From a bacterium (lineage in GTDB: Bacteria; SZUA-182; JBHHXV01), in contig JBHHXV010000002.1 of NCBI GenBank assembly GCA_046757225.1, forward strand, positions 1 through 33,441: DNA of 33,441 bases. The letters are read 5' to 3'. Below are positions 1,448 through 33,441 of this stretch, piece after piece (the first letter of the stretch is position 1; each line of letters begins with the position of its first letter). The notes beneath the pieces are model-generated. The model made no database searches. It saw only the letters and a list, made by a program, of their open reading frames with translations, and was not told the DNA's origin. The position numbers and the translations under genes were made by a program.

Positions 1448-2127
1448 TGTCTACCTTCGGCCAACTCAAAGCCTTAATCTGGAAAGACGTCTTAGCGGAA
1501 CTCCGCACCAAGGAGATGGTTGTCTCCATGCTGGTGTTCGCTCTGCTGGTGATCGTTATCTTTGTGTTCGCCTTTGATCCCGGTTCAGGAGCGATGGCCG
1601 AAGCCGCTCCCGGAATCCTGTGGGTAGCCTATACCTTCGCCGCCATCCTGGGACTGAACCGCTCTTTTGTGCTTGAACAGGAAAACCAGTGTCTGCAGGG
1701 GCTGCTTCTTACACCGGTAGACCGGAGCGTCATCTATCTGGGAAAATTTATGGGAAACCTGATCTTTGTGGGGGTGATTGAGCTTATCATCCTGCCGGTA
1801 TTTGTGGTATTATTTGATCTTTCTCTGACTTTCGGGGGGCTGGGCTGGCTGTTGCTGATTATTGTGCTCAGCACGGCCGGGTTCGTGGCGGTGGGCACCT
1901 TGTTTTCCGCTATTTCGGCCAATACCAAAGCCCGGGAGATCCTGCTGCCGATTTTACTGTTTCCGGTAACCGTGCCGGTGTTGATCAGCGCGGTCAAAAT
2001 CACCGGTCTGGTTCTGCAAGCGGAACCGGCCAGCGAAATCTGGCCCTGGCTCAAGCTCTTGATCGCTTTTGATCTTATCTTTATTACGGTGGCCTTTTTA
2101 ACCTTTGAGTATGTGGTGGAAGACTAA
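1447..2127 (+). CDS. ccmB: heme exporter membrane protein CcmB-like
   Basis: 226-aa polytopic membrane protein with about six hydrophobic helices, of CcmB-like size, between the ABC ATPase and ccmC. GTG start overlaps the ccmA stop. Confidence 0.7.
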   Translation: MSTFGQLKALIWKDVLAELRTKEMVVSMLVFALLVIVIFVFAFDPGSGAMAEAAPGILWVAYTFAAILGLNRSFVLEQENQCLQGLLLTPVDRSVIYLGKFMGNLIFVGVIELIILPVFVVLFDLSLTFGGLGWLLLIIVLSTAGFVAVGTLFSAISANTKAREILLPILLFPVTVPVLISAVKITGLVLQAEPASEIWPWLKLLIAFDLIFITVAFLTFEYVVED

Positions 2128-2827
2128 CATTTATATGAATAAATCTCTTTTCAGGATAATTTTTGAAGCCGCTACCTTTCTGCTGGTGCTGCTTTCCTTA
2201 TATATGATTTTTGTGTATGTCCCTACGGAAAAGGTGATGGGAATCGTGCAGCGGATCTTCTATTTTCATGTTTCCATTGCCACCATAACCTTGACCGCTT
2301 TTTTCCTGGTTTTTGTTTACAGTGTTCTGTTTCTGGTTAAAAGGGACTTGAAATGGGATATCTGGGCGCAGTCGGCCGCTGAGGTGGGAATCGTTTTCTG
2401 TTCGCTGGTGCTGATTACCGGGCCGATCTGGGCCAAACCGATCTGGGGGGTCTGGTGGACCTGGGACGCCCGCTTGACCACCACCCTTATCTTATGGTTT
2501 ATTTATGTGGCTTACCTGATGCTCCGCTCTTCGGCCGGGACCAGCGATCTTAAAAGAGCGCGTTTTGCCGCCGTGTTCGGGATTGTGGGGTTTATTGACG
2601 TGCCGGTCGTCTATTTCTCCATTCACTGGTGGCGCACCATCCACCCGGTGGTAATCACCGCTCATAAGGTACGGCTGGCGACCCCGATGGTGTATACGAT
2701 GCTGGTTTCCCTGACGGCTCTCGGTTTCCTGTTTACCTGGCTGCTGCTGGAACGGGCGGCCCTGGGCAAAGCCCGTCACTTGCTGGATGATTTGAAACAG
2801 TTATCCAATGGCGTTTCTTTTAAATGA
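2105..2827 (+). CDS. ccmC: heme exporter protein CcmC (WWD-domain heme handling protein)
   Basis: Tryptophan-rich WWD motif WGVWWTWDARLTTT in a polytopic membrane protein. An alternative ATG at 2135 (MNKSLF...) would avoid the overlap with ccmB. Stop TGA at 2825-2827. Confidence 0.9.
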   Translation: MSMWWKTNIYMNKSLFRIIFEAATFLLVLLSLYMIFVYVPTEKVMGIVQRIFYFHVSIATITLTAFFLVFVYSVLFLVKRDLKWDIWAQSAAEVGIVFCSLVLITGPIWAKPIWGVWWTWDARLTTTLILWFIYVAYLMLRSSAGTSDLKRARFAAVFGIVGFIDVPVVYFSIHWWRTIHPVVITAHKVRLATPMVYTMLVSLTALGFLFTWLLLERAALGKARHLLDDLKQLSNGVSFK

Positions 2828-2840
2828 GAGGATAAAGACC

Positions 2841-3047
2841 ATGAACGAAATTATTTTCCTGGTTGAAGATGCCCCCGAAGGCGGGTATGTCGCTCGTGCT
2901 CTTGGTGCTTCAATCTTTACTGAAGCTGATGATTTGCCCGATCTCCGAAAACAGATACTTGAGGCGGTACATTGCCATTTCGATGAAGATCAGATGCCAC
3001 AAATTATACGGTTACATTTAGTTCGTGAAGAAGTGCTTGCCGCATGA
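2841..3047 (+). CDS. hicB: HicB-like antitoxin (small, no obvious DNA-binding extension)
   Basis: MNEIIFLVEDAPEGGYVARALGASIFTEADDL...VHCHFDE...IIRLHLVREEV resembles the short HicB-like partner proteins of HicA toxins. GAGAGGA lies upstream of the ATG at 2841. ATGA overlap with the next gene. Confidence 0.6.
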   Translation: MNEIIFLVEDAPEGGYVARALGASIFTEADDLPDLRKQILEAVHCHFDEDQMPQIIRLHLVREEVLAA

Positions 3048-3295: not shown

Positions 3296-3448
3296 ATGAA
3301 ACACCTGTCCTACCTTTTTTGGGCCTACGCAGTGGTCTGGATCACCTTGTTCGGCTATATGGCAAGCCTTCAGAAACGGCGGAAAGATCTGTCCCGGGAA
3401 CTGGAGGATTTGAAGGACTCAATTCCTGTGAGTTCGACAGACCCCTAG
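3296..3448 (+). CDS. ccmD: CcmD family small membrane protein (alternative short CcmD type); not in the supplied ORF track because it is under 60 aa
   Basis: ATG at 3296 is preceded by AAGGAAA. The product is MKHLSYLFWAYAVVWITLFGYMASLQKRRKDLSRELEDLKDSIPVSSTDP, one TM helix followed by a basic stretch and an acidic tail, as in short CcmD proteins. It sits where ccmD is expected after ccmABC. Confidence 0.75.
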   Translation: MKHLSYLFWAYAVVWITLFGYMASLQKRRKDLSRELEDLKDSIPVSSTDP

Positions 3449-5675
3449 ACATCAAACCGGCCGCTCCCAGATATAAGCCGGCCGCCAGAAAAACCGCCTT
3501 GTCCAGCCCCCAGGTCATGCCGATGATTATCGTGGCGGTGGAGCCGGCTACCGAGGCCAGGCCGTTGATTCCGTAAAACCAGGGAATGGAATTCCGGTTT
3601 TTCTGTTCCCGACCCAGGCGTTTTATGGCCAGGGGAAAGGGCATCCCCATCAGGAAAGCCCCGGGAAACAGGTAAAGAACCGCCATAAGCATCCGAATAT
3701 TAAGCGGGTTGTCGATAGTCAGGTTTATATAGGGAGCTATGGTAAGATTTACTATAATTCCCCAGGCCGCTGTCAGAGCGCAGATTATCGGAATTCTTTG
3801 TTTTTCCCACCCCCTCTTTTGAGCGTAAAAAGCGCCTGCTCCCGAACCGACCAGGATGGAAAACAGGATGACCGCCAGGTTCAGGTGAGGAAACCCCAGA
3901 TAAAAGCTGAACCGTTTGGTGAAAAACAGTTCCAAACTCATGAACCCCCAGCCCAGGGCGAAAAAATAGCCGAGATAGGATAATCTTTCTTTCTTTTCTG
4001 GGCTGGTGTAAAAAAAATATCCGAGGCTGTTTAACAGGATCAATAAGAGAATTCCCCCCAACAGGTAATATAATTTGAGCCGGTGATTGATCACCACTTC
4101 CAGGAAATAGGGGCTGTTGTCAGTGGAAGGGTGGAGGTTCAGTTGGCGGGCCTTGATGTACTGACTGGGCGTGATTTTGCCGAAGGCGATCTGGTAAATC
4201 CTGGTATCGGATTGGTAATGGGGCACGAAAACCACTTCTGTGCCGAACTCCTTGGTTTTGGCTACCATCCGGTCGGCTTCCTCCAGGGTAAACGGGGTCT
4301 TTCTGACCATCAGGGCGTAGGAATAGGCCGACCAGCCGGAACTGCTGACCGCCGCCAGGTGACGCATGGCCTGAGGGGGAGTCAGCCCCTGGTCCTCAAA
4401 GCAGTCAACAGCGGTAAGGATAAATTTTTCCAGCACTTGCGAGAAGTTGACAAAAATGGTTAAAGTGCCGTCCGGTTTCAGCCGCCGGAAATAATGGCCG
4501 AAGGCCTCTCTGGTATACAGATAGTTCTCCATCTGGGAAATACCGCTCAAGTCGGCGAAGGCGTTGGTGCTGGACAGGGTCAGGACGATCCGGTCGTAGA
4601 GTTTGTTTCCCTTCATCACGAAGCTGCGGCCGTCCTCCACCACCCGCCTTACCCTGGGACGGTGATATATGTTGCCGTTATAGGCCGCTTCCTCTTCGGT
4701 CATTTTCACCACCCCCTCATTGATTTCCACCGCGTCCACGGAATCCGCCCCGGCCAGCAGAGACATCAGAATGTCCCGCCCTCCTCCCGATCCGATAATA
4801 GCTATATCCTGATTATTGCCGAAGAGATAGGGAAAATAGATAATGTTGTGTCTGAGTGCACCCAGGTTTTCCGGGCTGTAACGAACCATGGTGGCCTGGG
4901 TACCGGCGTTGATGAAGATATCCCGCAGGGAATCGTCCTTGCTGCCGCTTGTCAGATCGCAGCGGGAATAAATGTCCCAGGAGGAGCGAAACCATTTTGC
5001 CTTGAACCTTTTATAATTCAACATTTGTCCCAGGGGAGTGTCCGTATGTCTGATCTGTTCCGGGCCGATCGTGATCGGATAAAAGAGCAAGGAACAGACG
5101 ACGAACAAGAAGGAAAAACTGGGAATGATAGCTTTCTTCAGGGAAGGGCGATCTATCAGAAAGATTAACAGTGAAGAGACGAGCGCTAGAGACAGTAAGG
5201 CGTAAATCACTCCCAGGTACTGGGTTAAAACGATTGACAGCAGGCATCCGGCCGCTCCCCCGGACAGGTCGTAAAAATAGAGCTGGCCGCTCCGGGAGGA
5301 GTTGAGCCGAAAGATGTCGGCAATAACCAGTCCGGAAAGAAAAAAGGGAATCAGACAGATCAGTATATTGACAGGGAGTCCCAGCCGGTAAAACCAGCGG
5401 GATATGTAAACAACACACAGCAGGTAAGCGAGCGGCAGAATCGTTACAGCTTTCCGGGAAAGCGGGCTTTGTTCCGGGGATTTTTTCTTTAACCGCCAGT
5501 GCAGAAAAATCCCCCCCAGGCCTCCCCCCAGGATACTCAGGGAGATGATGATAAACAGGGTGTCGAACAGATAAAGGACGGCAAACAGCCGGATAATCAG
5601 GATTTCATAGATAAAGACGCAGAGGCTGACACCGAAAACGGTTAAGAAACTTTGTCGTTGGGCGGAAAGGGGCAT
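3342..5675 (-). CDS. polytopic membrane protein with a central spermidine-synthase-like (SpeE-type aminopropyl/methyltransferase fold) domain
   Basis: 777 aa with hydrophobic helices at both ends. The central segment DIAIIGSGGGRDILMSLLAG..VDAVEINEGV...YDRIVLTL...LYTREAF..LKPDGTL resembles the SpeE SAM/dcSAM-binding fold. Confidence 0.6.
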   Translation of the reverse strand: MPLSAQRQSFLTVFGVSLCVFIYEILIIRLFAVLYLFDTLFIIISLSILGGGLGGIFLHWRLKKKSPEQSPLSRKAVTILPLAYLLCVVYISRWFYRLGLPVNILICLIPFFLSGLVIADIFRLNSSRSGQLYFYDLSGGAAGCLLSIVLTQYLGVIYALLSLALVSSLLIFLIDRPSLKKAIIPSFSFLFVVCSLLFYPITIGPEQIRHTDTPLGQMLNYKRFKAKWFRSSWDIYSRCDLTSGSKDDSLRDIFINAGTQATMVRYSPENLGALRHNIIYFPYLFGNNQDIAIIGSGGGRDILMSLLAGADSVDAVEINEGVVKMTEEEAAYNGNIYHRPRVRRVVEDGRSFVMKGNKLYDRIVLTLSSTNAFADLSGISQMENYLYTREAFGHYFRRLKPDGTLTIFVNFSQVLEKFILTAVDCFEDQGLTPPQAMRHLAAVSSSGWSAYSYALMVRKTPFTLEEADRMVAKTKEFGTEVVFVPHYQSDTRIYQIAFGKITPSQYIKARQLNLHPSTDNSPYFLEVVINHRLKLYYLLGGILLLILLNSLGYFFYTSPEKKERLSYLGYFFALGWGFMSLELFFTKRFSFYLGFPHLNLAVILFSILVGSGAGAFYAQKRGWEKQRIPIICALTAAWGIIVNLTIAPYINLTIDNPLNIRMLMAVLYLFPGAFLMGMPFPLAIKRLGREQKNRNSIPWFYGINGLASVAGSTATIIIGMTWGLDKAVFLAAGLYLGAAGLMSRGLSNSQELSPSNPPVPGTDLSAVSEGLPYSRTR

Positions 5676-12481: not shown

Positions 12482-13039
12482 ATGAAACAGTTTCTCTGTA
12501 CAGTATTTTCTCTGTTGTTTTTTATGGCGATTAATCTAATCGCCGTCCGTCCGGTTCTGGCGACAGATCAGAATAAGCTGTTATTGAGAGCTGTCGCTTT
12601 CGGTAATGCGGCGAAAACCAAGGCCGCCCTCCGGAAAGGCGCTGATCCGGATACAAGAGATGGGAATGGCAACACGGTTTTGATGAAAATGACGAAGAAA
12701 GGGTATACCCGTATTGCGAAGATCTTAATTTTCTACGATGCTGACGTAAACGCTCAGAACAAGCTGGGCGAGACCGCCTTAATTCTGGCGGCGGAAGGAC
12801 ATATCAAGATAATGCGCGTTTTGCTCAGTAAAGGCGCTGACCCAAATGCCAGAAGCAAGGATGGAACGACCCCCTTGATGCGGGCGGCGGACAAGGGGAG
12901 TCTCTACATCGTGAAACTTTTGCTGGAACATGGGGCGGATGTAAATACCCGGGATCATAAAGGTCGGACTCCGTTGTGGTTCGCCCAGAAGAAGCAAAAG
13001 AAGGAAATAATTAAATTGCTTGAGCAGTATCAGAAATAA
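12482..13039 (+). CDS. secreted ankyrin-repeat protein
   Basis: N-terminal signal-like MKQFLCTVFSLLFFMAINLIAVRPVLA, followed by about four ANK repeats (G.T.LM.A...G....V..LL..GADVN/PN). Confidence 0.85.
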   Translation: MKQFLCTVFSLLFFMAINLIAVRPVLATDQNKLLLRAVAFGNAAKTKAALRKGADPDTRDGNGNTVLMKMTKKGYTRIAKILIFYDADVNAQNKLGETALILAAEGHIKIMRVLLSKGADPNARSKDGTTPLMRAADKGSLYIVKLLLEHGADVNTRDHKGRTPLWFAQKKQKKEIIKLLEQYQK

Positions 13040-17159: not shown

Positions 17160-17438
17160 ATGTTTTTAGCCAGGGTTACCGGCAATATCGTTTCCACGGT
17201 CAAGCATTCCGCCTATAAAGGCAAAAAGATCATGGTTGTCCATAAAGTGAACTTGAAGGGAAAAATGGAAAAAGAGGCCTACCTGGCCATTGACGAGGCC
17301 CAGGCCGGTGATGGTGACCTGGTTCTGCTTTTATTGGAAGGCAGTTCCGCCCGCACGGTTCTGCATAATGATACCGCTCCGGTCAGGGGAATCATTATGG
17401 GGATAGTGGATCAGGTCGATATCCCTTCCTCCTGCTGA
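17160..17438 (+). CDS. EutN/CcmL family (BMC-P, microcompartment vertex pentamer fold) protein
   Basis: MFLARVTGNIVSTVKHSAYKGKKIMVV...AIDEAQAGDGDLVLLL.GSSAR......PV...I.GIVDQV parallels EutN (MKLAVVTGQIVCTVRH...AIDNIGAGTGEWVLLVSGSSAR..PVD..VIGIVDEV). I prefer the ATG at 17160, 4 nt after the upstream stop. Confidence 0.75.
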   Translation: MFLARVTGNIVSTVKHSAYKGKKIMVVHKVNLKGKMEKEAYLAIDEAQAGDGDLVLLLLEGSSARTVLHNDTAPVRGIIMGIVDQVDIPSSC

Positions 17439-19942
17439 GGCGGAACCACCTGAGCGCAGATATAGGAATCGCTCTGAAGAAACTGCCTGGCCACCCTCTG
17501 GATATCCGAAGCGGAAATCTCTTTTATTCTGTTTTCGTATTCCTGATATCTTAGATAACCCAGACCGTACAGTTCGTCCAGGGCGATTTCCAGAGCGATC
17601 GCCTGATTCTTCTGCCGGGAGACCTTCTTATGGCCTGAGAGATTGTTTCTGGCCCGGGAGAGTTCCTCGTCATCCACCGGCTCGTCGATCAGGCGCTGGA
17701 TCTCGTGGAGCATGCTCTTCTTGGCGGCTTCCAGCATTTCCTGAACCGTCCCCACATAGCAGATAAATCCCCCCGGGTCTACGCCGATCCAGTTCATGGC
17801 TCCCACAAAATAAGCCAGGCCCTGTTTTTCCCGGACATTGTCGAACAGCCTTCCCCCCATTCCGGAAAGGATCTCGCAAAGGAGTTCAAATACCGGAGCG
17901 TCCGGGTCTGAGACCGCCATGCCCCGATATCCCAGCATCAAGACCGCCTGCCGCTTGTCCAGGATTTTTTCCGCCATCGTCACCTGGGTAATCGGGGCTT
18001 CCTCTGGGTATTCGAGAAGCGGGTACTTCTTACCGGGCAGGTTGCCGAACTTGTCTTTTATGCTTTCCCGGGCTGCCGGAAAACCGATATCCCCGGAAAG
18101 AACCATTACCATGTTTTCCGGAACCGCCTGTCGCTGATAATAGGTGAGCAGCTCTTCCCGTTTCAGTCCGGTTACCGATTCGATGGTTCCGTTGTCGGGC
18201 AGGCCGTAAGGGTGGTTGGGAAACAGTTTGGCGCGCAGGAGGTTTCTGCTTACGCTGACCGGCTGGTCTTCGTCATCCTTGATATCGGCTATGATTTGCT
18301 CCTTAACGACCGATAAGGCTTTTTCCGGAAAACTGGCATTGCAGACCACATCCGCCAGGATATCCAGGCCGTACTCGAAATCATCCTTCATAACGGACAG
18401 GGAAACCTCCATGGAGTTGCCGCCGCTGGACGCGCCCAGCCTTCCCCCCACCGATTCGATCTGGGAGGCGATCATCTCCGAAGTCCGGCTGGCGGTTCCC
18501 TTGGTAAGCATTTCCGCTACCAGGTTGGAAATGCCGTTGTTGACCCTGTTTTCCGTGCGCAGCCCCCCGGCCATTAACAGCTTGACTCCGATGACCGGAA
18601 CCGCCGGGTTTTCCCGGACAATCAGCCTGAGGCCGTTTTCCAGGACAGTGCGGGTGATCTTTTCGGTTAACTTGTCGGCGCTCTGAGCCTGGCTGTCTTG
18701 CCCGGCAGCGCCTTTCGGTTTTAAAACCAGCCTGGTCATCCGCTCCGGAGAAAAATAAGCGGAAATTATTCTCTGTAAATCATCGGATGTGATCTTGGCC
18801 ACTTTCTTGACGTATTTTTCCGAGAAGAGGCAATCTCCTATGCCGACTTCATTGGCTCCCAGCAGGTGAGCCATCCCCTCCACTTTCTCCTGCTGAAAGA
18901 GATAGTGACTCTGAATCTGTTTTTTGGCTTTCTCCAGCTCTGCTTCCGGCACCTTTTTATTCTTTATCGAGTCGATCTCTTCCCGGATTACCCGGTTGAT
19001 TCGGTCCAGCTTTTCATAATCGAATTCTGCTTCCAGCAGGAATACCCCGGTTTCGGTGGAGGTGTAGGAACAGCAGCTGAAATTGAAAGCCAAACCTTCC
19101 TTTTCCACCAGGCGCTGATACAACCTTGAGCTATGCCCGCCGCCCAGAATCAGCTGCAGGATATCCAGGGCGAAAATATCCGGATGACCGGTGGGAACCG
19201 TGTGAAAACCGGTAACCAGCCGGCTGATCTGGGTTTCGTATTCCAGCTCTCCTGTCCGGGCGGATAGTTGAACCGGTTCCGGGGGAAGAAGGGGGGCTAT
19301 CGGAGTTACCCGGGGGATTTTTTCAAAGAACTCTTTAGCCAGTTGGATCATCTCAGCGCAGGAATCACCGCCGACAGCCACCACGGTCATCCGGTCCGGG
19401 ATGTACATTTTCCGGTAATATTTCAAGAGATCGTCCCGGGTGATCCGGGTGAAGAGCCCTTCATAACCGATGATCGGATGCCTGATCGGATGCCTGATGA
19501 ACGAGGTTCTGGTGAAATTATCGAACAGGTAGCGGTCCGGGTCGTCCATTCCCATGTTGATCTCTTTGAGGATCACCTCCCTTTCCTTTTCCATCTCTTC
19601 GGAGTCAAAGGTGGAAGAGGTAATGGCGTCGGCGAACACATCCATGCCTGTTCTTAAATTTTCTTTGGGCAGAGTAACATGATAGACCGTGTTCTCATAA
19701 GAGGTGAAGGCGTTCAACACGCCGCCCGCCCTTTCGATTTCCCGGGAGATCGCCCCTACCGGCCGTCTGTCCGTTCCCTTGAACAGCATATGCTCCACAA
19801 AATGGGAGATCCCGCTGCCCATGTATTCCCCTTCCAGCACGCTGCCGGCCTTAAACCAGATCTGCAGGGCCGCCACCTCCGCTCCCGGCACCTGCCTGGC
19901 GATTACCACCGCCCCGTTGGCTAATTCCACCCGTTTTGTCAT
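17411..19942 (-). CDS. M16 (pitrilysin/insulinase) family zinc peptidase, two fused M16 modules
   Basis: Inverted zinc motif HFVEHMLFKGT near the N-terminus. At 843 aa it has a second, inactive-type M16 half (LRLIVRENPAVPVIGV...). Confidence 0.85.
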   Translation of the reverse strand: MTKRVELANGAVVIARQVPGAEVAALQIWFKAGSVLEGEYMGSGISHFVEHMLFKGTDRRPVGAISREIERAGGVLNAFTSYENTVYHVTLPKENLRTGMDVFADAITSSTFDSEEMEKEREVILKEINMGMDDPDRYLFDNFTRTSFIRHPIRHPIIGYEGLFTRITRDDLLKYYRKMYIPDRMTVVAVGGDSCAEMIQLAKEFFEKIPRVTPIAPLLPPEPVQLSARTGELEYETQISRLVTGFHTVPTGHPDIFALDILQLILGGGHSSRLYQRLVEKEGLAFNFSCCSYTSTETGVFLLEAEFDYEKLDRINRVIREEIDSIKNKKVPEAELEKAKKQIQSHYLFQQEKVEGMAHLLGANEVGIGDCLFSEKYVKKVAKITSDDLQRIISAYFSPERMTRLVLKPKGAAGQDSQAQSADKLTEKITRTVLENGLRLIVRENPAVPVIGVKLLMAGGLRTENRVNNGISNLVAEMLTKGTASRTSEMIASQIESVGGRLGASSGGNSMEVSLSVMKDDFEYGLDILADVVCNASFPEKALSVVKEQIIADIKDDEDQPVSVSRNLLRAKLFPNHPYGLPDNGTIESVTGLKREELLTYYQRQAVPENMVMVLSGDIGFPAARESIKDKFGNLPGKKYPLLEYPEEAPITQVTMAEKILDKRQAVLMLGYRGMAVSDPDAPVFELLCEILSGMGGRLFDNVREKQGLAYFVGAMNWIGVDPGGFICYVGTVQEMLEAAKKSMLHEIQRLIDEPVDDEELSRARNNLSGHKKVSRQKNQAIALEIALDELYGLGYLRYQEYENRIKEISASDIQRVARQFLQSDSYICAQVVPPQQEEGIST

Positions 19943-21953: not shown

Positions 21954-22060
21954 CAAAACTTTTCATGAAGGGCCTCACGTCACCCCCTAATGATGAAAAC
22001 AGGTTATCACACCCACGAAAAACGGGTTTCCACATTTTGTGTTTTCACGGTAAAAGATAA
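21954..22060 (+). repeat. Copy D (full length) of the intergenic element, filling the spacer between the polyprenyl synthase and radical SAM genes
   Basis: CAAAACTTTTCATGAAGGGCCTCACGTCACCCCCTAATGATGAAAACAGGTTATCACACCCACGAAAAACGGGTTTCCACATTTTGTGTTTTCACGGTAAAAGATAA. It begins 5 nt after the upstream stop and ends 3 nt before the GTG start at 22064. Confidence 0.8.
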
Positions 22061-22063
22061 CAG

Positions 22064-22927
22064 GTGACAACCAGCCTCTATTTTGAAAAACTGGAAAACC
22101 AGCGGGTAAGGTGCACACTTTGCCCCCATGAGTGTGTTATCGCCCAGGGAAAAGCGGGTATATGCCGGGGCAGGGTGAACCGGCAGGGCAGGCTTTACGC
22201 GGAAAATTACGGCCAGGTGTCTTCCCTGGCCCTCGATCCGGTTGAGAAGAAGCCGCTTTATCATTTTTTTCCCGGCTCGTCCATCTTGTCGATAGGAGTA
22301 AGCGGCTGCAATCTCAGGTGTCAATTCTGCCAGAACTGGCAGCTTTCCCAAACCCCCAATCCCAGCCGCTATATCAGTCCTGAGAAACTGGCCGCTCTGG
22401 CCGGGGAGCATAACTCCATTGGAGTGGCTTTCACTTACTCCGAACCCCTGATCTGGTACGAGTATATCCGGGACTGCGCCCCGCTGCTTCGCCGGGCCGG
22501 CCTCAAAACCGTGCTGGTAAGCAACGGGTTTCTTAATGAGGAACCGTTCAAAAAAATACTCCCCCATATCGACGCCTTTAACATCGACCTCAAGTCCATC
22601 GAAGGCGATTTTTACAAGGGTTGGTGCGGCGGCCGCCTGGAGCCGGTGCTGGAGAACATAAGGTCGGTGGATCGGTCGGACTGCCATCTGGAGCTTACCA
22701 ATTTAATAATTCCCGGCCTTAACGACTCGGATGAACAGATATGCGCTCTGGTAGACTGGGTGGCCGGGCTTAACCCTGACATTCCGGTTCATTTTTCCCG
22801 CTATCATCCTGACTACCAGTGCACCCAACCTCCCACTCCTGCCGCTACTATGCGGAGAGCCCTGTCAATCGCCCAGGGGAAATTGAAATACGTTTATCTG
22901 GGAAATATGAGTGAAGAAGATTCATAA
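22064..22927 (+). CDS. AmmeMemoRadiSam-system-type radical SAM enzyme (PflA-like activase fold)
   Basis: YFEKLEN..VRCTLCPHECVIAQGKAGICRGR N-terminal Cys cluster, DPVEKKPLYHF and the CNLRCQFCQNW radical SAM CxxxCxxC motif. Confidence 0.85.
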   Translation: MTTSLYFEKLENQRVRCTLCPHECVIAQGKAGICRGRVNRQGRLYAENYGQVSSLALDPVEKKPLYHFFPGSSILSIGVSGCNLRCQFCQNWQLSQTPNPSRYISPEKLAALAGEHNSIGVAFTYSEPLIWYEYIRDCAPLLRRAGLKTVLVSNGFLNEEPFKKILPHIDAFNIDLKSIEGDFYKGWCGGRLEPVLENIRSVDRSDCHLELTNLIIPGLNDSDEQICALVDWVAGLNPDIPVHFSRYHPDYQCTQPPTPAATMRRALSIAQGKLKYVYLGNMSEEDS

Positions 22928-26275: not shown

Positions 26276-27733
26276 CTATCTGGCGGGGGGCTTTATGACC
26301 ACAAACAGCGAGCTCTTATCCCGCTTGCGGAGTACCATAATGGAATCCTCCGGCTTAACCTTTTCCATAGCTTTGTTTAAGCTTTCGACATCGGAAAGAG
26401 GATTACGGTTCAGCTGGATGATTAAGTCACCGGGTATAAGGCCGGCCTCTTCCGCTGGTGAGCCGGTTTCCACGCTGGTTACCAGCATTCCCTCCCCTTC
26501 CTTGACTTCAAACTTCTTGGCCAGTTCAGGGGTGATTTCCTGCAGAGAGAAACCGAAACGGTTGGTCTTTTCCTGAGCCGCTTCCCGGCTTTCTTTCTGC
26601 TGCCCCATGGTGATGGTGATGGTTTTTGGCTTACCGTCCCGGAGAATTTCCACCTTTACCACGGTTTCCGGTTTGGTTCCGGCCGCCAATCTGGATAACT
26701 CGGCCGGGGTATGAACCTTTTGACCGCCGAACTCCAGGATGATATCCCCCGCTTTCATGCCCGCCTTGTCCGCCGGGTCTCCCTTAAAAACCTGGCCGAC
26801 CAGAACCCCGGATTCCTCCGGAACATTGAACTGCTTGGCCAGGGACTCGGTAACCTTCTGGATGGCGATTCCCATCCACCCGCGAACCACTTTGCCGGTG
26901 GTAAGCAGCTGCTCCATGATGTTTCTGGCCATGTTAACCGGAATGGCGAAGCCGATCCCCTGAGCCCCGGAAGTAATGGCCGTATTAATGCCTACTACTT
27001 CCCCTTTGAGATTTATCAGGGGCCCGCCGCTGTTTCCCGGATTAATGGAGGCGTCGGTCTGAATGAAATTTTCATAATTGGCGATGTGAAGCTCGTTACG
27101 GCCAAGAGCGCTGATTACCCCGACGGTGACCGAGTTCTCAAAACCGTAGGGATTACCGATCGCCATCGCCCATTGTCCGATCCGGCATTTATCGGAATCC
27201 CCCAGTTTGGCGGCGGTTAATTTGTACTTTTTAGGTTCTATTTTTATGATCGCCAGATCGGTTTTGGGGTCCTTGCCTATTATCTTGCCGGGGAACTTGG
27301 TGCCGTCCGCCAGTTTTATGGTAATCTTGTCCGCCTTTTCGATCACATGATAATTGGTAAGAACAGTGCCGTTGTCATTGACGATTACTCCCGATCCCAG
27401 GCTGGTCTGGGGAATCCGGCCCTGAGGTATTCTTTTCCGGAAAGGCTCCAGAAAGTTTTTGAAGAAATCCTTCAAATCATCGCCCGGCATACGGTCGAAA
27501 TCATGAGGCGATTTAAAGCCGTGAGGTGATTTACCGGAATCGAATGACGGGTGTTTCACCATATGCTCGGAACTGATATTCACCACCGCATCCCGGTTAT
27601 GCTGAGCCACCTCCACAAAGCCCTCTTCCAGGGCTTTCAAGACCTCCTGCTTATCCAGAGCAAATGAGTTTCCCCAGCAAATCCCCAGCAGAAGCAGGAT
27701 GGAAAAAACAACGAATCGTTTGTTGCGAAGCAT
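26276..27733 (-). CDS. htrA: periplasmic serine endoprotease, HtrA/DegP/DegQ family with two PDZ domains
   Basis: Signal peptide, the catalytic triad context (TNYHV, D.A..KI, GNSGGPL) and two PDZ-like segments (G.LV..V..G.PA..AG...GD.I). Confidence 0.9.
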   Translation of the reverse strand: MLRNKRFVVFSILLLLGICWGNSFALDKQEVLKALEEGFVEVAQHNRDAVVNISSEHMVKHPSFDSGKSPHGFKSPHDFDRMPGDDLKDFFKNFLEPFRKRIPQGRIPQTSLGSGVIVNDNGTVLTNYHVIEKADKITIKLADGTKFPGKIIGKDPKTDLAIIKIEPKKYKLTAAKLGDSDKCRIGQWAMAIGNPYGFENSVTVGVISALGRNELHIANYENFIQTDASINPGNSGGPLINLKGEVVGINTAITSGAQGIGFAIPVNMARNIMEQLLTTGKVVRGWMGIAIQKVTESLAKQFNVPEESGVLVGQVFKGDPADKAGMKAGDIILEFGGQKVHTPAELSRLAAGTKPETVVKVEILRDGKPKTITITMGQQKESREAAQEKTNRFGFSLQEITPELAKKFEVKEGEGMLVTSVETGSPAEEAGLIPGDLIIQLNRNPLSDVESLNKAMEKVKPEDSIMVLRKRDKSSLFVVIKPPAR

Positions 27734-27779
27734 AGATATGTTCCTCTTGTTTGTTCAGTTTTTATTAAAAGAGATTTAC

Positions 27780-27807
27780 ATTTTACAAATATAGGGGATT
27801 TTGTCAA
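27780..27807 (-). promoter_or_regulatory. candidate sigma70-type promoter for htrA-thiL
   Basis: On the minus strand: TTGACA (27807-27802), a 16-nt spacer ending in TG, then TAAAAT (27785-27780). AGAGGA lies upstream of the htrA ATG. Confidence 0.5.
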
Positions 27808-27825
27808 CCCGGCTTTTGTGGGGGA

Positions 27826-30800
27826 TTAGTTGGTGACCGCTGTTGAATAGGAGGGAGAATAGATACGCTTGATTAATTTCCGGTATTCCGCGGGAATCTC
27901 CTGTTGAAAGACACTGCCGTCTTCTTCTTGCTTTCCCAGGGCGATTACCCCCTTTACCTTGTATCTTTTCATATTTTCCGATTCCATCTCTTTGAGTTTG
28001 CTCTTATCCTTCACCTTGATCGGAACATTAAGAAAAAGCTTTTTATCGGCATCTTCCATAAAAGAAAGGTTGGGGGTGTTTTTCTGCTTTATTTTGGTGT
28101 TGGCGAACGTATGCTGGAGAATTTCAGAAGGAGCCCCTCCCTGGTTCATGTAAAAGTCAGCGTTTTTTATCTCGGGTTGCTGGTGCGATGTCTGCCGGCG
28201 AACGCTCCGGTCTTTGGAAAGCGGTAATTTCCTGGTGGAAAGAGTTTTATTCTCTGTCCCGAGTTTGGCTATCCGCTTACGCTGCTTTTTCAACCTGTTC
28301 ATTATCTGGCTAAAGACATCCCCGCTGGCCAGGTTCTCCTGCATGGGAGAGGTGTTGTTTATCATATCGTTCTGGGGGGTCATGCTGACCTGCTGGGCTA
28401 CCTTGGCGTTATAGAAGGCCTGTCGCTTAGTGGCTGAAGGGGAAGGCTTCGCGTTGTTCGTCTTGGTCTCATCATCACCCTCCTGATTACTTCCGTTGTC
28501 ATCGTCGGAATTATTGCGCGAATTCTGCCGGCTCTTCTGCAGTTGCTTTACCATCTGGTCGATTTGATTGATCGCTCCCTGTTTTAAAATGTCTTCCGGA
28601 TTCATGGAGTCGCTGAACCCCTGTTGATTGGTTCTCTTTTGAAAGAACCGGGAGAAGAGAGGCATGGTTTCCATAGAATTCTTCAGCTGGTCGAAAAAGC
28701 TTCCCTTACTGTTGCTTATGGGAAGCTTCCCGGTTTGCATTTTGTCTTGAATCATATCCAGATCCTTGGATGAAAGCTTGTTCATTTGCCGGGAGATCTG
28801 TTTAATCATTCTATCGTCCAGCTGCTGCGACAGCTTATCGCTCATTTCCATGTATTTCCGCCAGTTACTCTTCATCTGTTTTATCCGCATATCACCGAGC
28901 GTTTGCTTTGAAGCGGAATTCTTCAGGTTCTTGGTAAGCTTGTTCAGCTTATGCGAAACCTTTGATAAATCAGAGGTAATCTCTCTGAGCTTTTCCCGCC
29001 GTTTATTTTGGTCTTTCTCCTTAAGCAGCTTTTTTAATTCCGACCGCTTTTTTCCGATAGTTCTTCTTTCGGGGCTGGAACCGCCCAGTTTGTTTTCAAT
29101 CCCTTTCATCTGGGTATCGATTTTATCGAAATTCTGGGCTAACTCGCCTATGGCGTTCGGTTGAGAAAGAATATATGAGATATTATCCAATTCATTGGCG
29201 GAAGTCACCATCCTGGATATTTCGTTCATTGATAAGCTGTTAAGCAAATTGGCCGGTTTCACCTTACCCATCCGGATAAATTCCTGGATGCCGCCGTTGA
29301 ACTGGGCAATATGTTTTCTCACATCCGGGGAGATCTTCTCCGGGTCGATCCGTTTAAGAAAATCCTTGTTTTGTCTCGCTTGACTGATAAGCTTGTTAGC
29401 GGTCTGATCTTTGGGGTTTTTCTTCAGGCGTTCGGCCAGATTCTGTACCAGAGAATCATTTACATCTTTCATCTTGTTCATCATGTTAACAACCTGCCCG
29501 GAATTCTGGGCTTTTTTTATGCCGATGGAGAGCCGGGAAAGCTTGACCAGCTGTTTGTTTACATTGGTCTCGGATTTGCCCGGCTTATTAATCGGGGCCA
29601 TATTCTGTATGTTTTTATCCAGTTTAAGCATCTGTTTCCTGAAATCGCCGGAAAGCTTGCTGGGATCAATTTTGCTTAACAGTTTTTTGTTTTTTCTGAC
29701 CCTGGACAACAGTCTTTTTCCCAGGTCATCACCGGGATTATTCCTCAAATGCCGGCTGAATTTCTTAATCATGGAATCATTAAGCTTGTTCATCTTGTCG
29801 ACGGTCGCTTTCAATTGATTGGAATTTTTAACACTCATTAAATCAACGTTCAACTGGGAGAGTTTTCTTATCTTATCATCGGACATACTGCCGCCGCTTG
29901 GAACGGTCTTACTCGCCAGGCTGTGGATGCCGGTCTTCAACCGCAGCGCCTGCTTCTTGAAATCATGGGAAACCGCGTTCGGATTGATTTTATTCATTAA
30001 GTTTTTATTGGCTTTGGCCTGTTGCAACAATTTACCGGTTTGCCGGTCATCGGGGTTCTTTTTCAAACGCCGGTTGAGTTTATCCAGCATCGCCTGATTC
30101 AAACTCTTCATTCTATTCATGATTACTTTTCGGCGGCGGGAGTTCTTGTCTTTTAACAGCCCGTTGCTCAACCGGGTAAGTTCGCTTATTTGAGCGAGCG
30201 GGAGGCTGCCTGCGGTCTGGGGATTGAGCCTCCGGTCCAGGTTGTTGATGCCGGTATCCAGTTTCAAGACCTGCTTTCTGAAATCTCCGGAAAGCTTACC
30301 CGGATTAATCTTATCCATCAATTTCCGGCTGTTTTTGGCCTGTTCCAGCAAGGCCTTGCTTTTAAGGTCGTTGGGGGTTCGGCTTAAACGGCGCGCCAGG
30401 GTGTCGATAACCGACTTGTTGAGGGATTTCATTCTGGCCATCATCGCCTTTCTGCGGGCGGCGTTCTTTTCGTTCAGCAAATCCTGGTTGAGCTTGGAAA
30501 GCTCCCGCAGCTGGGTGGGAGTGGCGTCGAAAGCTTTCAGGGAATCATCCCGGGCCAGGTTCTGCAGGCCGTTGTTCAATTGTAATATCCGCTTTCTGAA
30601 ATCCTGAGAAACCTTATTGGGGTCGATACTTTTCATCAGGTTCTGATTGGTTTTCACCTGCTCCAGCAACTTCTGGCTTTGCCCGTCCCCGGGATTATTC
30701 CGCAAGCGCTCAGACAGCTTGTTGATCATGGACCGGTTGAGGGTCTTAATCCTCTTTATGACCGATTTCCGGCGGCCGGCGTTCTTTTCGCTCAGTAAAT

Positions 30801-33441
30801 TCCTGTTCAGTTCCGCCAGCTCGCTTATTTGGCCCTGGGTCATATCAGCCCCGAATCGGTCATTAAAGCCTCGGACCGTATCATTTATACCGGTATCCAA
30901 TTGCAATGTTTGCTTTCTGAAGGTGTGGGAAACCTTACTGGGATTGATTTTGTCCATTAGCTTCTGGTTTGTCTTAGCCTGAGCCAGCAGGCCCCTGATT
31001 TTAGGGTCACCAGGGTTCCGGTCCAAACTCCGGCTCAGGTTATCCATCATCGCCCGGTTCAGGGTCTTCATTCTCTTTACCATCGCCTGTCTCAGCCCGG
31101 CGTTCTTTTCGTTCGCAAGCTGCCCGCTTAATTGGGAAAGTTCGCTCAACTGACTGCCAACGGACTGGGACCCGGCCGGGGATTCGTTATTATCCTTAAA
31201 CCGGCTTCCCAGGCGGTTGCTTAACTGCTGAAGCGAGTCGGCCAGGACTTTTTGCCTGTCCGGGTCTTTCTCCTTCATCAATCTTTGGGAAAGATCCTTT
31301 ATCCGTTTCAGGTCCCCGGCAGCCGGGTTCGATTGGCTGGAGTCCGTTCTGGTAAGTGTTTTCTGGCTTAATTGTTGCAGCTTGGACGCTTGAGAGGGAT
31401 CTTTACCGGACATCTTCCGTGATAACTGATCCAGTTTTAAACCGATTGAGTCCATATCCTTGATTGAACCGGCCTGGACCTGCTCGGCCAGTTTGGCCAG
31501 TTCCAATGTCTGTCGCACAGCCTTTCTCTCTTCCGATTTTCTCGCCAGATCCTGCTGAATCTTTTTCTGTGACTGGGTAAGTTGCTGGGCGAGCTGCTTG
31601 ATCCGCCGCGGATCAGTGGTTTTCTGCAGCTTCTGCAGCAACCCTTGAGCCGTTTTTTGTTTTTTTAATAAGGCCGGGTCGATTGAGGGTGAAGCTACGT
31701 TACTGTTGTTTAAGCTCTGCTGAAGTTGATTCATCCGGTTCAATCCCGCAGCGGTGGCCGCCAGCTGGTCCCGCATTTTCAAAACATTTTGCTTGTCCAT
31801 CTTTGAGGAGCGTATTTTCCGGTTTATCCTGGTCAGTTTCCGGTACTTTTCCTTCCTCTGACGGCTGACGGTTTCATCCAGTTTGTCCAGATCCACCTCG
31901 TCTTTTTCCCTGTTTGCCGCCTGTTTCCGCAGATTGAAGGCGGTTCGCTTAACCTCAGTGGCTATCTCACTCAGTTCCCTGGCCAGTTGAGCGTTCTCCG
32001 GGTTCTGAGCGGAGATCTTTTTAAGGTTGCTTGTCAGAGCCTGAGCGGTCTGACCGATCTGGTTCAAACTGTTCGCGTCTTGAGGCCGCTTGAGCATATC
32101 GCTGAGTTCTTTCAACCGGGAGGCGCTCTTTTTCAGCTGGGATATTTGTCGGTCGGGGATTTGCCGGTTGTTTCGGGAGGGAGGCTGATTGCCGTGAATA
32201 CCGGTTGCCGCCCCGGGCATCCCCGTCTGGCCCAAAAAGCTGTTGGGATCTATTCCGGCCGGGATTTGATCAAACGACATTCCCTGAGACATAAAGTCGC
32301 TCGGATTTATTCCAGTGGGAATTTGATTTATCTGGCCATCGATTTGCGGTATGGAACTCGGGGTAAGAGGAACCGCCCCCCCCTTAGCCAGCATGTACTT
32401 GCTGCCGAACTGCATGTTGCGCTCCCTGAGGCTGACGTCCGCCTCGCCGGCCAGCTTGTCCAAGTCCATATTGGCCAGATCATCGGAAGCCATCATCATT
32501 TTGGACATTACTTTTTTCAGTTTGTCCGGGCTATCTTGATTTTTCTTTACCTGCTGATTGAGGTCCTTCAACTGGTTTCCCAATGACTCGATCTTTTCCG
32601 CCTCTTTCTTGCTCAACCTTTTACCGCCGGTTCTCGGTTGTAAACCGAATTGATTGAGCGCCAGTTTGTTCAATCTGGCGCTCGTGTCAATCAACTGCTG
32701 ATTGAGGCCTTTTATTTTAAAAGGATTTTCTTCCTTTTTGATCGCCGCTTCCAGGGCCTGGATGCTCCGGTTCAACTCCTTCAGGTTATCCAGGCCGCCG
32801 CTGGGAACGCCTTTTCTCATTCCCGCCCACTCCGTAAGCAGTTGATCGCTCTCCCGGGCCAGCCTGGAAGCCATTCCCTTGACGTTTTGAGGCGCCCGGT
32901 TCTTTTTCAGGTGCTCGCTTATCTTCTGAATCCGGTCCAATCTGTCCTTAAAATCAGCGGGAAGCGCCTGTCCCTGAGCTTGAGAGGGATCAAGCCCGTC
33001 ACTCAACCGGCTGATACTGTCCGAGTACGCTCTGATTTGCTTGGTTAAATTCCGGTTTCCGACGCTGTCGATCTTTTCCAGTTGATTGGCCATCTCTTCC
33101 AGCCGTTTGTTGTCGCCCTTCAACGCTTCTCTGGTAATTACGCTTTGTCCCGGCGGCGGGGAAGCATTGTGATTCATGATCCCTCCGGCGATACCGGCCA
33201 CGTTCTGGGCTATCTGAGACATTTCCCGGGAAAATTTCTTCCGGGTTTCCGGAGAAACGTTTTTAGACATCTGCTGGGCAAGCGAGAGCCGGGTTTGGGT
33301 ATCTACATTATCAGCCATGCTGTCCGAAAGATCGGCTTTATGTTCGGGAGAAATGTTTTTGGCCATTATATTGTAAGACTGTTCCCGGGTCTGTTGGTCA
33401 ACCTGACCTTGCATTTTCCCGGAAACCTTTGTTCTCATCTT
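27826..33441 (-). CDS. giant low-complexity repeat protein of unknown function (at least 1870 aa, N-terminus beyond the window edge)
   Basis: One uninterrupted minus-strand frame runs from the window edge (33439-33441 continues the frame as AAG) to TAA at 27828-27826. Internal amino-acid repeats are conserved while the DNA has diverged, which argues for a real coding sequence. Confidence 0.8.
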   Translation of the reverse strand, partial: KMRTKVSGKMQGQVDQQTREQSYNIMAKNISPEHKADLSDSMADNVDTQTRLSLAQQMSKNVSPETRKKFSREMSQIAQNVAGIAGGIMNHNASPPPGQSVITREALKGDNKRLEEMANQLEKIDSVGNRNLTKQIRAYSDSISRLSDGLDPSQAQGQALPADFKDRLDRIQKISEHLKKNRAPQNVKGMASRLARESDQLLTEWAGMRKGVPSGGLDNLKELNRSIQALEAAIKKEENPFKIKGLNQQLIDTSARLNKLALNQFGLQPRTGGKRLSKKEAEKIESLGNQLKDLNQQVKKNQDSPDKLKKVMSKMMMASDDLANMDLDKLAGEADVSLRERNMQFGSKYMLAKGGAVPLTPSSIPQIDGQINQIPTGINPSDFMSQGMSFDQIPAGIDPNSFLGQTGMPGAATGIHGNQPPSRNNRQIPDRQISQLKKSASRLKELSDMLKRPQDANSLNQIGQTAQALTSNLKKISAQNPENAQLARELSEIATEVKRTAFNLRKQAANREKDEVDLDKLDETVSRQRKEKYRKLTRINRKIRSSKMDKQNVLKMRDQLAATAAGLNRMNQLQQSLNNSNVASPSIDPALLKKQKTAQGLLQKLQKTTDPRRIKQLAQQLTQSQKKIQQDLARKSEERKAVRQTLELAKLAEQVQAGSIKDMDSIGLKLDQLSRKMSGKDPSQASKLQQLSQKTLTRTDSSQSNPAAGDLKRIKDLSQRLMKEKDPDRQKVLADSLQQLSNRLGSRFKDNNESPAGSQSVGSQLSELSQLSGQLANEKNAGLRQAMVKRMKTLNRAMMDNLSRSLDRNPGDPKIRGLLAQAKTNQKLMDKINPSKVSHTFRKQTLQLDTGINDTVRGFNDRFGADMTQGQISELAELNRNLLSEKNAGRRKSVIKRIKTLNRSMINKLSERLRNNPGDGQSQKLLEQVKTNQNLMKSIDPNKVSQDFRKRILQLNNGLQNLARDDSLKAFDATPTQLRELSKLNQDLLNEKNAARRKAMMARMKSLNKSVIDTLARRLSRTPNDLKSKALLEQAKNSRKLMDKINPGKLSGDFRKQVLKLDTGINNLDRRLNPQTAGSLPLAQISELTRLSNGLLKDKNSRRRKVIMNRMKSLNQAMLDKLNRRLKKNPDDRQTGKLLQQAKANKNLMNKINPNAVSHDFKKQALRLKTGIHSLASKTVPSGGSMSDDKIRKLSQLNVDLMSVKNSNQLKATVDKMNKLNDSMIKKFSRHLRNNPGDDLGKRLLSRVRKNKKLLSKIDPSKLSGDFRKQMLKLDKNIQNMAPINKPGKSETNVNKQLVKLSRLSIGIKKAQNSGQVVNMMNKMKDVNDSLVQNLAERLKKNPKDQTANKLISQARQNKDFLKRIDPEKISPDVRKHIAQFNGGIQEFIRMGKVKPANLLNSLSMNEISRMVTSANELDNISYILSQPNAIGELAQNFDKIDTQMKGIENKLGGSSPERRTIGKKRSELKKLLKEKDQNKRREKLREITSDLSKVSHKLNKLTKNLKNSASKQTLGDMRIKQMKSNWRKYMEMSDKLSQQLDDRMIKQISRQMNKLSSKDLDMIQDKMQTGKLPISNSKGSFFDQLKNSMETMPLFSRFFQKRTNQQGFSDSMNPEDILKQGAINQIDQMVKQLQKSRQNSRNNSDDDNGSNQEGDDETKTNNAKPSPSATKRQAFYNAKVAQQVSMTPQNDMINNTSPMQENLASGDVFSQIMNRLKKQRKRIAKLGTENKTLSTRKLPLSKDRSVRRQTSHQQPEIKNADFYMNQGGAPSEILQHTFANTKIKQKNTPNLSFMEDADKKLFLNVPIKVKDKSKLKEMESENMKRYKVKGVIALGKQEEDGSVFQQEIPAEYRKLIKRIYSPSYSTAVTN
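29230..31149 (-). repeat. six tandem in-frame repeats of 106-107 codons inside the giant ORF
   Basis: Units start at 31149, 30828, 30510, 30189, 29871 and 29550 (aa 764, 871, 977, 1084, 1190, 1297). Approximate unit consensus: [IL].EL..L...LL.EKNA.RRK....RMK.LN..M...L..RL..NP.D.....LL.QAK.N..LM.KI.P.K.S.DFRKQ.L.L.TGI..L. Confidence 0.85.

Follow-up and report, generated by a model that had tools for sequence, protein, structure and literature searches.

The contig JBHHXV010000002.1 (GenBank assembly GCA_046757225.1), from a bacterium of the GTDB lineage Bacteria; SZUA-182; JBHHXV01, ends inside a minus-strand reading frame that has not closed at the last nucleotide, and this raises the question of whether the frame encodes a protein and, if so, of what kind. 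We analyzed the whole contig as one stretch of 33,441 nucleotides (nt), which we call the window. The original prediction, made from the letters of the DNA alone, had described the frame as encoding a giant cysteine-free protein of no recognizable family. We find that this giant open reading frame (ORF) is a real, native gene of an uncultivated bacterium with a product of more than 200 kDa, and that the protein represents a new sequence family within the known class of giant helical-repeat structural proteins. The gene itself is as follows:

27826..33441, minus strand: partial giant-protein gene, 1871 codons plus a stop at 27826-27828, with the 5' end past the contig edge

Translation of the minus strand from nt 33441 to 27826 yields 1871 sense codons closed by a single stop, and the frame is still open at nt 33441, in agreement with what had been predicted. 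Because the window is the entire contig, the N-terminus of the giant protein lies beyond the readable sequence, and residues are numbered in amino acids (aa) from the window edge. The remaining five frames of 27826-33441 contain 40-139 stops each, which excludes an open frame of 1871 codons arising by chance. The guanine-plus-cytosine (GC) content at third codon positions is 0.63, versus a mean of 0.61 for the neighboring genes, and synonymous codon preferences are alike. Overall GC is about 49% in the giant gene versus 50-55% in its neighbors, and this lower value is due to Lys, Asn, and Gln codons. A contig from the Logan assemblies (L028, run SRR29324610) matches the window at 100% identity over 1908 nt (27734-29641), spanning the last 604 codons of the giant gene and the start of the adjacent htrA gene.

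Further evidence comes from six 107-aa repeats within the protein (R1-R6, laid out below), which Tandem Repeats Finder does not see at the DNA level. Between repeat copies the proportion of synonymous differences is saturated at 0.64-0.86, versus 0.29-0.51 for nonsynonymous differences, and conservation is lowest at third codon positions, a signature of selection on this reading frame. That the gene is real thus follows from its codon usage, the conservation of the repeats as protein, the identity with L028, and the relatives found in three other metagenomes. The contrary explanation, a nonfunctional artefact of composition or assembly that happens to keep the frame open, could draw on the low-complexity composition and on the presence of the giant protein in a single metagenome-derived contig that is cut by the contig edge. 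It is effectively refuted by the contrast between 1871 open codons and the stops in the other frames, by the codon-position-specific conservation across the repeats and native codon usage, and by the identical Logan contig and conserved relatives.

The composition of the protein is unusual, and here the original prediction held up throughout. The visible 1871 aa contain no Cys and 2 Trp, whereas 18.6 Cys (Poisson P 8e-9) and 15.8 Trp would be expected from the 26 other genes of the window. Against the same baseline, Tyr (12 seen, 55 expected) and Phe (36 seen, 87 expected) are scarce, and His is likewise strongly depleted. The protein is polar and basic, with K at 11.8%, L 10.7%, S 9.2%, Q 8.4%, N 8.2%, R 6.9%, and D 6.5%, an isoelectric point (pI) of 10.25, and a net charge of about +150 across the visible part. 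Nearly all blocks carry a net charge of +4 to +17 per 100 aa. The highest mean Kyte-Doolittle hydropathy over 19 residues is only 0.51, so that a stretch of transmembrane length is absent, as had been claimed. The visible giant protein contains no enzymatic or membrane-spanning domain.

From its N-terminal to its C-terminal side, the visible protein can be divided into seven segments:

33157..33441, minus strand: periodic repeat of 16/32 aa (aa 1-95), M.KN[IV]SPE..K..S.. / M...VD.QTR......, in at least 2.5 copies up to the window edge, which truncates it
32425..33156, minus strand: predicted short amphipathic helices with (D/N/E)P-type turns (aa 96-339), from hydrophobic periodicity and regular-expression matches
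32152..32424, minus strand: Pro/Gly/Gln-rich linker (aa 340-430), probably flexible, carrying the QIPTGINPSDF / QIPAGIDPNSF duplication
31150..32151, minus strand: predicted helical region (aa 431-764) with further DP-turn hairpins, from periodicity
29230..31149, minus strand: six tandem 107-aa repeats R1-R6 (aa 765-1404), from a joint profile, with four helices predicted in each
28600..29229, minus strand: predicted helical region (aa 1405-1614), weakly alignable to the relatives P0002 and P0004
27829..28599, minus strand: C-terminal tail that defines the family (aa 1615-1871), from alignments A1 and A2

In the first segment, Met residues recur at aa 10, 26, 42, 58, and 74 and the intervening sequences can be aligned. 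The corresponding DNA repeats follow each other at 96-nt intervals, with one more partial copy at 33415-33434, at the window edge. The start used by the database entry for this protein (P0001) is Met26, but no Shine-Dalgarno sequence precedes it. The lack of a ribosome-binding site at Met26 indicates that the giant protein continues upstream. The short motifs quoted in the original prediction were all found, with MAKNISPE at nt 33343-33366 and MSKNVSPE at nt 33247-33270 in this segment, and QIPTGINPSDF at nt 32293-32325 and QIPAGIDPNSF at nt 32236-32268 in the linker. Regular-expression matches were also obtained for the recurrent theme L..L...LKK..DP, which corresponds to predicted short amphipathic helices with (D/N/E)P-type turns.

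Hydrophobic residues in aa 96-339 recur with a period of 3.45-3.9 residues, above shuffled controls, and Pfam and NCBIfam return only subthreshold coiled-coil noise for this segment. The linker that follows has a combined Pro and Gly fraction of 0.16 and is the sole block with a negative net charge. In aa 431-764 the period is 3.45 (z = 7.3). This segment contains the longest run free of Pro and Gly in the protein (aa 482-565, 84 aa) and has weak similarity to designed antiparallel coiled coils among PDB sequences (E 0.02). The region between the 107-aa repeats and the tail (aa 1405-1614) has a period of 3.35-3.6, and the HMMER matches of P0002 and P0004 start within it, at about aa 1446 and about aa 1470, respectively.

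The 107-aa repeat, already suspected in the original prediction, is present in six copies with pairwise identities of 29-52%, each matching the joint profile at E values of 1e-42 to 1e-49. Their consensus is eLs.L...L..eKN...rk....rMK.LN.sm...L.rrL..NP.D.....LL.Qak.N..Lm.kI.P.K.S.DFRKq.L.L..GI., in which the conserved turn motifs EKN, NP.D, and I.P.K.S.DFRKQ are accompanied by conserved hydrophobic stripes. An AlphaFold model of R1R2, for which an alignment of three rows was made by adding R3R4 and R5R6, had a mean predicted local distance difference test (pLDDT) score of 78 and a predicted template modeling score of 0.48. The model places four helices in each unit, of approximately 10-16, 28, 19, and 25 residues, with only three residues between the end of the fourth helix and the first helix of the following unit.

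When the R1R2 model was compared with the PDB by Foldseek, tandem four-helix-bundle proteins dominated the top of the list. The best match was the alpha-catenin M fragment 1l7c (E 0.014, template modeling (TM) score 0.46, near full-length), followed by the vinculin head and talin R7R8; in between, the same list also contained helical membrane receptors and designed helical proteins. No PDB match reached E <= 0.001, and identity in the structural alignments was 8-14%. The lack of a match at this level indicates an architectural resemblance and is not evidence of homology. The repeats also had no match at E <= 0.1 in the viral structure library BFVD.

The tail gave a different picture. Its 257 aa contain a low-complexity stretch rich in Asn, Ser, and Asp together with five short conserved elements, namely A[IV]N.I[DE]..[IV]..L, M[EQ].[ND]L....VF..I..RL, LPL...D...R....QP, S[FY]M[ED], and Q..DS[VM]...[QD].[IV]P..Y..[IL][IL][KR].[LI][YF]. 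The last of these lies about 10 aa ahead of the stop, and the giant protein itself ends in ..Q.IP.EY..LIKR.Y about 10 residues before its stop. The strings FLNVPIKVKD, YKVKGVIALG, and EIPAEYRKLIKRIY, which had been singled out as signs of a more globular C-terminus, do all lie within the last 70 residues. The proposed globularity of the last ~120 residues was not borne out, since an AlphaFold model of the tail built on four sequences had a pLDDT of 52 and suggests that the C-terminal 257 aa are mostly disordered. Helices were predicted at module residues 2-30, 93-112, and 237-256, with pLDDT below 50 in the rest. In Foldseek this model yielded a single meaningless match (E 9.6), a failure to be expected from a pLDDT of 52.

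Taken as a whole, the giant protein is predicted to be all-alpha, with short amphipathic helices arranged in hairpins or small bundles and joined by flexible linkers rich in Pro, Gly, Gln, and Asn. The AlphaFold models cover R1R2 and the tail, and the helicity of the remainder is read from periodicity and composition. Prolines are spaced at a median of 24 aa, no run of 100 aa is free of Pro and Gly, and 4.5% of residues fall within Pro/Gly-free stretches of at least 60 aa. These frequent breaks, together with the four short helices modeled in each 107-aa repeat, speak against the extended coiled-coil fiber that had been suggested. They weigh equally on the related proposal of a cytoskeletal protein of the crescentin, FilP, or Scy type, which would polymerize into filaments through long heptad or hendecad coiled coils. 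A helical periodicity of 3.35-3.6 in some segments, subthreshold matches to SMC, Rad50, the crescentin N-terminal segment, and designed coiled coils, and the lack of an enzymatic domain are all in keeping with such a filament. Every match to a coiled-coil family is, however, far under its cutoff (14 versus 27 bits for the crescentin N-terminal segment), and we consider a coiled-coil filament improbable.

No described family was found for the protein, as had been stated, in Pfam, NCBIfam, PHROGs, PADLOC, or the PDB sequences, whether the query was the whole protein, its 8 chunks, the relatives, or the profiles. Pfam and NCBIfam scans of the giant protein returned only subthreshold coiled-coil noise, and profile and structure searches with the tail and the repeats gave no confident match to a characterized family. 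Word-indexed searches with the whole protein, profile A2, and aa 1-671 found nothing except the giant protein itself, but these negatives are weak for a protein of this composition, as the A2 search missed even the four member sequences of A2. An exhaustive HMMER search of aa 672-1871 against 1.84 billion representative proteins recovered three partial relatives, P0002 (E 7e-16), P0003 (E 1e-13), and P0004 (E 3e-6), which match confidently only over the C-terminal ~250-420 aa. The six 107-aa repeats had no counterpart in the same HMMER search of 1.84 billion representative proteins.

The tail alignments A1 and A2 have 29 invariant columns over the 4 sequences at 26-30% identity. The tail defines a very small, undescribed family of 4 sequences among 1.84 billion representative clusters, and the 90% clusters of P0001 to P0004 are all singletons. 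A regular expression for the terminal motif, [IVL]P.[EN]Y..[LIVM][IVL]..[LIVMY][FY], matched only family members among all fetched loci. The three relatives contain no Cys, have a pI of 9.7-9.9, and are 15-16% Lys, so that the lack of Cys, the basic pI, and the high Lys content are traits of the family. Upstream of the tail they have helical arrays of similar composition that can scarcely be aligned.

All three relatives lie on contigs from the Joint Genome Institute (JGI) that are 1.1-3.3 kb long. For P0002 and P0004 the frame stays open as far as the 5' edge of the contig, and the P0003 gene call begins at base 2 of its contig. No longer relatives and no N-terminus were found in scans of JGI metagenomes or IMG/VR. 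The sample of one relative, P0003 (metagenome 3300009506), is Mai Po mangrove wetland sediment from the site MaiPo-8, for which a metatranscriptome, SRR7284896, is also listed (PMC6461988). The contigs of the relatives (L025, L026, and L027) have a GC content of 40-43% versus ~49% in the giant gene, and the family therefore spans clearly different base compositions despite its rarity. A separate observation is that L028 ends in repeat R5 (window nt 29641), while the window contig ends in the N-terminal 32-aa repeat array. Both assemblies appear to break in repetitive parts of the gene, which may explain the absence of full-length family members on record.

Several assignments were considered and rejected. 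The IMG label "ABC-type transporter Mla subunit MlaD" on P0002 (contig L025) is spurious. There is no Pfam MlaD match, and TIGR00996 scores 16 bits against a cutoff of 140 and falls on a helical stretch, so that the MlaD/MCE label is an annotation artefact. For DUF4175/TIGR02302, a group of long low-complexity proteins, there was no match at E <= 1 when the giant protein, its C-terminal chunks, and the three relatives were scanned. A role in anti-phage defense is not indicated either, as neither the giant protein nor the relatives had a PADLOC match.

What might such a protein do? The original prediction offered a fiber, tether, ruler, or matrix protein. The coiled-coil fiber has been dealt with above; a helical, modular protein of the structural class (tether, scaffold, or matrix) is still the most reasonable expectation. 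The reading that we prefer, and to which we give about an even chance of being correct, is a nonenzymatic polycationic scaffold or tether that docks through its conserved tail. The giant protein would act as a long and flexible scaffold in beads-on-a-string fashion, in which the conserved C-terminal helices would serve as a docking module that attaches one end of the molecule to a conserved partner. Length, together with a large number of weak binding sites for a polyanionic surface, would come from the basic helical bundles of the fast-evolving array; the surface would most likely be that of the nucleoid or the acidic face of a membrane. We distinguish a conserved docking tail from a variable array because the relatives match confidently only at the C-terminus, where short helices are embedded in predicted disorder. 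Exported proteins of diderm bacteria do not usually have a pI above 10. Such a value fits cytoplasmic polyanion binders better than secreted Gram-negative proteins, and for this reason we tentatively lean toward a location in the cytoplasm, at the nucleoid or the inner membrane face.

A number of points weigh against a cytoplasmic scaffold of this kind. The N-terminus lies beyond the contig in the giant protein and is incomplete in the 3 relatives, so that a signal peptide or anchor is possible and the compartment is a guess. No partner gene is conserved beside the giant gene or the three relatives. The matches to known folds are weak, the best at E 0.014 with a TM score of 0.46, and come from models made with 3-4 sequences, of R1R2 and the tail only, while helicity elsewhere is deduced from periodicity and composition. 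The putative binding of polyanions is read from charge alone. Finally, exported fibrous proteins, too, typically lack Cys and aromatic residues.

This last point leads to the main rival of the scaffold, a secreted or cell-surface fiber or adhesin like staphylococcal Ebh and Embp. Here the basic bundles would bind an anionic matrix, the surface of a prey or host cell, or sediment mineral, and the tail would act as a signal for export or anchoring. All four family members are free of Cys and poor in aromatic residues, and a fast-evolving repeat array attached to a conserved terminus would suit a surface protein. Tandem helical bundles are reported for Embp (PMC7587433), and a secreted ankyrin-repeat protein in the window together with an ankyrin gene beside P0004 hints at an organism that interacts with other cells. 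On the other hand, a pI of 10.2 is unusual among exported diderm proteins. Pfam gave no match to a FIVAR, GA, RTX, Ig-like, autotransporter, or type IX secretion system C-terminal domain, the C-terminus has no hydrophobic anchor or sorting motif, and there are no secretion-system genes among the scanned genes of the 33-kb window. The N-terminus is beyond the contig edge. We regard a surface fiber or adhesin as a real possibility but a distinctly less probable one than the docked scaffold. A giant adhesin secreted by an RTX/type I system was rejected. With a pI of 10.25 the protein is not acidic, there are no RTX or Ig-like matches, and the ABC genes encoded in the window, for CcmA and an unrelated ABC ATPase, lie at least 18 kb away.

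A long helical protein with a conserved end could also be the tape measure or ruler of a phage or contractile injection system, or the product of another mobile-element gene, and some tape-measure proteins were indeed weakly matched in BFVD (E > 1). There is, however, no PHROGs match, no IMG/VR locus, and no BFVD match at E <= 0.1, and both the chromosomal housekeeping neighbors and the native codon usage argue against a mobile element. We therefore hold this origin to be highly improbable.

Immediately downstream of the giant gene are a promoter site and a protease gene:

27780..27807, minus strand: sigma-70-like promoter site TTGACA-16-TAAAAT, 11/12 matches, in the spacer between the giant gene and htrA
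26276..27733, minus strand: htrA, Do/DegP-family serine protease with a signal peptide (TIGR02037, 487 bits versus a cutoff of 416)

As had been noted, htrA lies on the same strand and starts 92 nt downstream of the giant gene, and the near-consensus site in the spacer supports the suggestion that it has a promoter of its own. The original prediction had also raised, as speculation, a link to envelope quality control, and the giant protein might accordingly be a substrate, regulator, or quality-control partner of HtrA. The shared orientation and short spacer would be compatible with such a coupling, and since no terminator-like site was called in the 92 nt, read-through is possible. Against it stand the separate promoter of htrA and the genomic context elsewhere. 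In none of the three relatives is the downstream gene htrA. P0004 is followed by a convergent ankyrin-repeat gene and another relative by a convergent gene whose product, read by eye, has a DnaJ (J-domain)-like end, while the remaining relative has no gene within 100 nt. Conversely, at 24 htrA loci in genomes of other phyla (GTDB representatives; best HtrA identity 41-44%, several phyla), we found no nearby relative of the giant protein and no thiL synteny; these genomes include no near relative of the source organism. The proposed link is thus not supported, and we consider a functional coupling to HtrA very unlikely.

The rest of the window is ordinary chromosome, with rpsI/rplM, ccmABC, class I fumarase, thiL, apbE, polyprenyl synthase, and M16/M17 peptidases, and tRNA and Rfam scans of the window gave no match. 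At 12482-13039 (plus strand) lies the gene for a small basic (pI 10.1) protein with ankyrin repeats and a clear N-terminal signal peptide (MKQFLCTVFSLLFFMAINLIAVRPVLA), and the ankyrin-repeat gene convergent to P0004, at 1859-2992 (minus strand) of contig L027, encodes a larger one. Bacteria that interact with other cells typically secrete ankyrin proteins. The co-occurrence of the two genes with members of the family may be coincidental.

Three other loci in the window deserve mention in their own right. A 777-aa polytopic membrane protein at 3342-5675 (minus strand), with hydrophobic clusters near residues 8-180 and 530-670, had no Pfam match at E <= 1e-4 and no PHROGs match at E <= 0.01. 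At 17411-19942 (minus strand), an 843-aa protein consists of two fused M16 peptidase halves and resembles a YfmF-YfmH fusion in NCBIfam; YfmF and YfmH are usually encoded by separate genes. Two long, overlapping ORFs lie on opposite strands, one at 22007-22687 (minus strand) with no family match and one at 22064-22927 (plus strand) with a radical-SAM-like CNLRCQFC motif. The plus-strand ORF is probably the real gene of the pair.

Large nonenzymatic scaffolds organize cell poles, division sites, nucleoids, and surfaces in model bacteria, and we know of no description of a basic giant scaffold made of tandem four-helix bundles. If the preferred reading is true, the giant protein would be the first member of a family not described before, whose giant, polycationic, all-alpha repeat proteins come from uncultivated bacteria. 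Of its known sequences, 3/4 come from environmental metagenomes, one of them from mangrove sediment. Large low-complexity orphans are common in metagenomes, and in practice the protein is another piece of metagenomic dark matter, of moderate interest for its unusual charge and tidy repeat architecture.

Among known systems, Embp and Ebh are giant bacterial proteins whose tandem repeats of ~110-170 aa form alpha-helical bundles and give the molecule an elongated shape (PMC7587433). They share with the giant protein a very large size, the lack of an enzymatic domain, and tandem repeats that are, or are predicted to be, helical bundles. In contrast to them, the giant protein has no FIVAR or GA match (hmmscan, whole protein and 8 chunks, E <= 1), is strongly basic, and contains no more than six regular repeats, with irregular predicted helical hairpins on either side. 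It also lacks a C-terminal membrane or cell-wall anchor (maximum 19-residue hydropathy 0.51; no sorting motif). Its host belongs to another lineage, and the signal peptide of the neighboring HtrA is consistent with a diderm.

Talin, vinculin, and alpha-catenin, force-bearing adaptor proteins of eukaryotes with tandem bundles of four and five helices, gave the best structural matches to the R1R2 model, in which each repeat is predicted to have four helices, of ~10-28 aa. These matches are below conventional significance (best E 0.014, TM score 0.46). The sequences are not similar (10-14% identity), and Pfam gave no match to a vinculin-family or talin-rod entry at E <= 1. The bacterial origin of the protein makes analogy far more likely than homology. 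A bolder interpretation, which we think unlikely to be right, is that the six 107-aa units and their degenerate neighbors are a counterpart of the talin/alpha-catenin rod that evolved independently in a thinly sampled lineage of bacteria. Such a rod would be a chain of four-helix bundles, an extensible polycationic tether that unfolds stepwise under load or exposes cryptic binding helices and that connects the docking partner bound by the tail to the nucleoid or a membrane.

EzrA, a regulator of cytokinesis, is a bacterial spectrin-like cytoplasmic scaffold with a linear array of ~100-aa helical-bundle repeats (PMC4243239). The repeat length is similar (107 aa in the giant protein), but four helices are predicted in each 107-aa unit, while EzrA has five triple-helix repeats, a mass of ~60 kDa, and an N-terminal transmembrane anchor. 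The giant protein is more than 3 times larger and has no Spectrin or EzrA match in Pfam. A last comparison is with the polar hubs FimV and HubP, in which a long, fast-evolving, highly charged, and repetitive region of poorly conserved sequence is joined to an N-terminal LysM domain and transmembrane segment and to a short conserved C-terminal module that recruits partners. These hubs are acidic whereas the giant protein is basic, and NCBIfam and Pfam give no FimV match. The likeness would lie in the overall plan, for in the giant protein too a variable charged region ends in a conserved C-terminal module.

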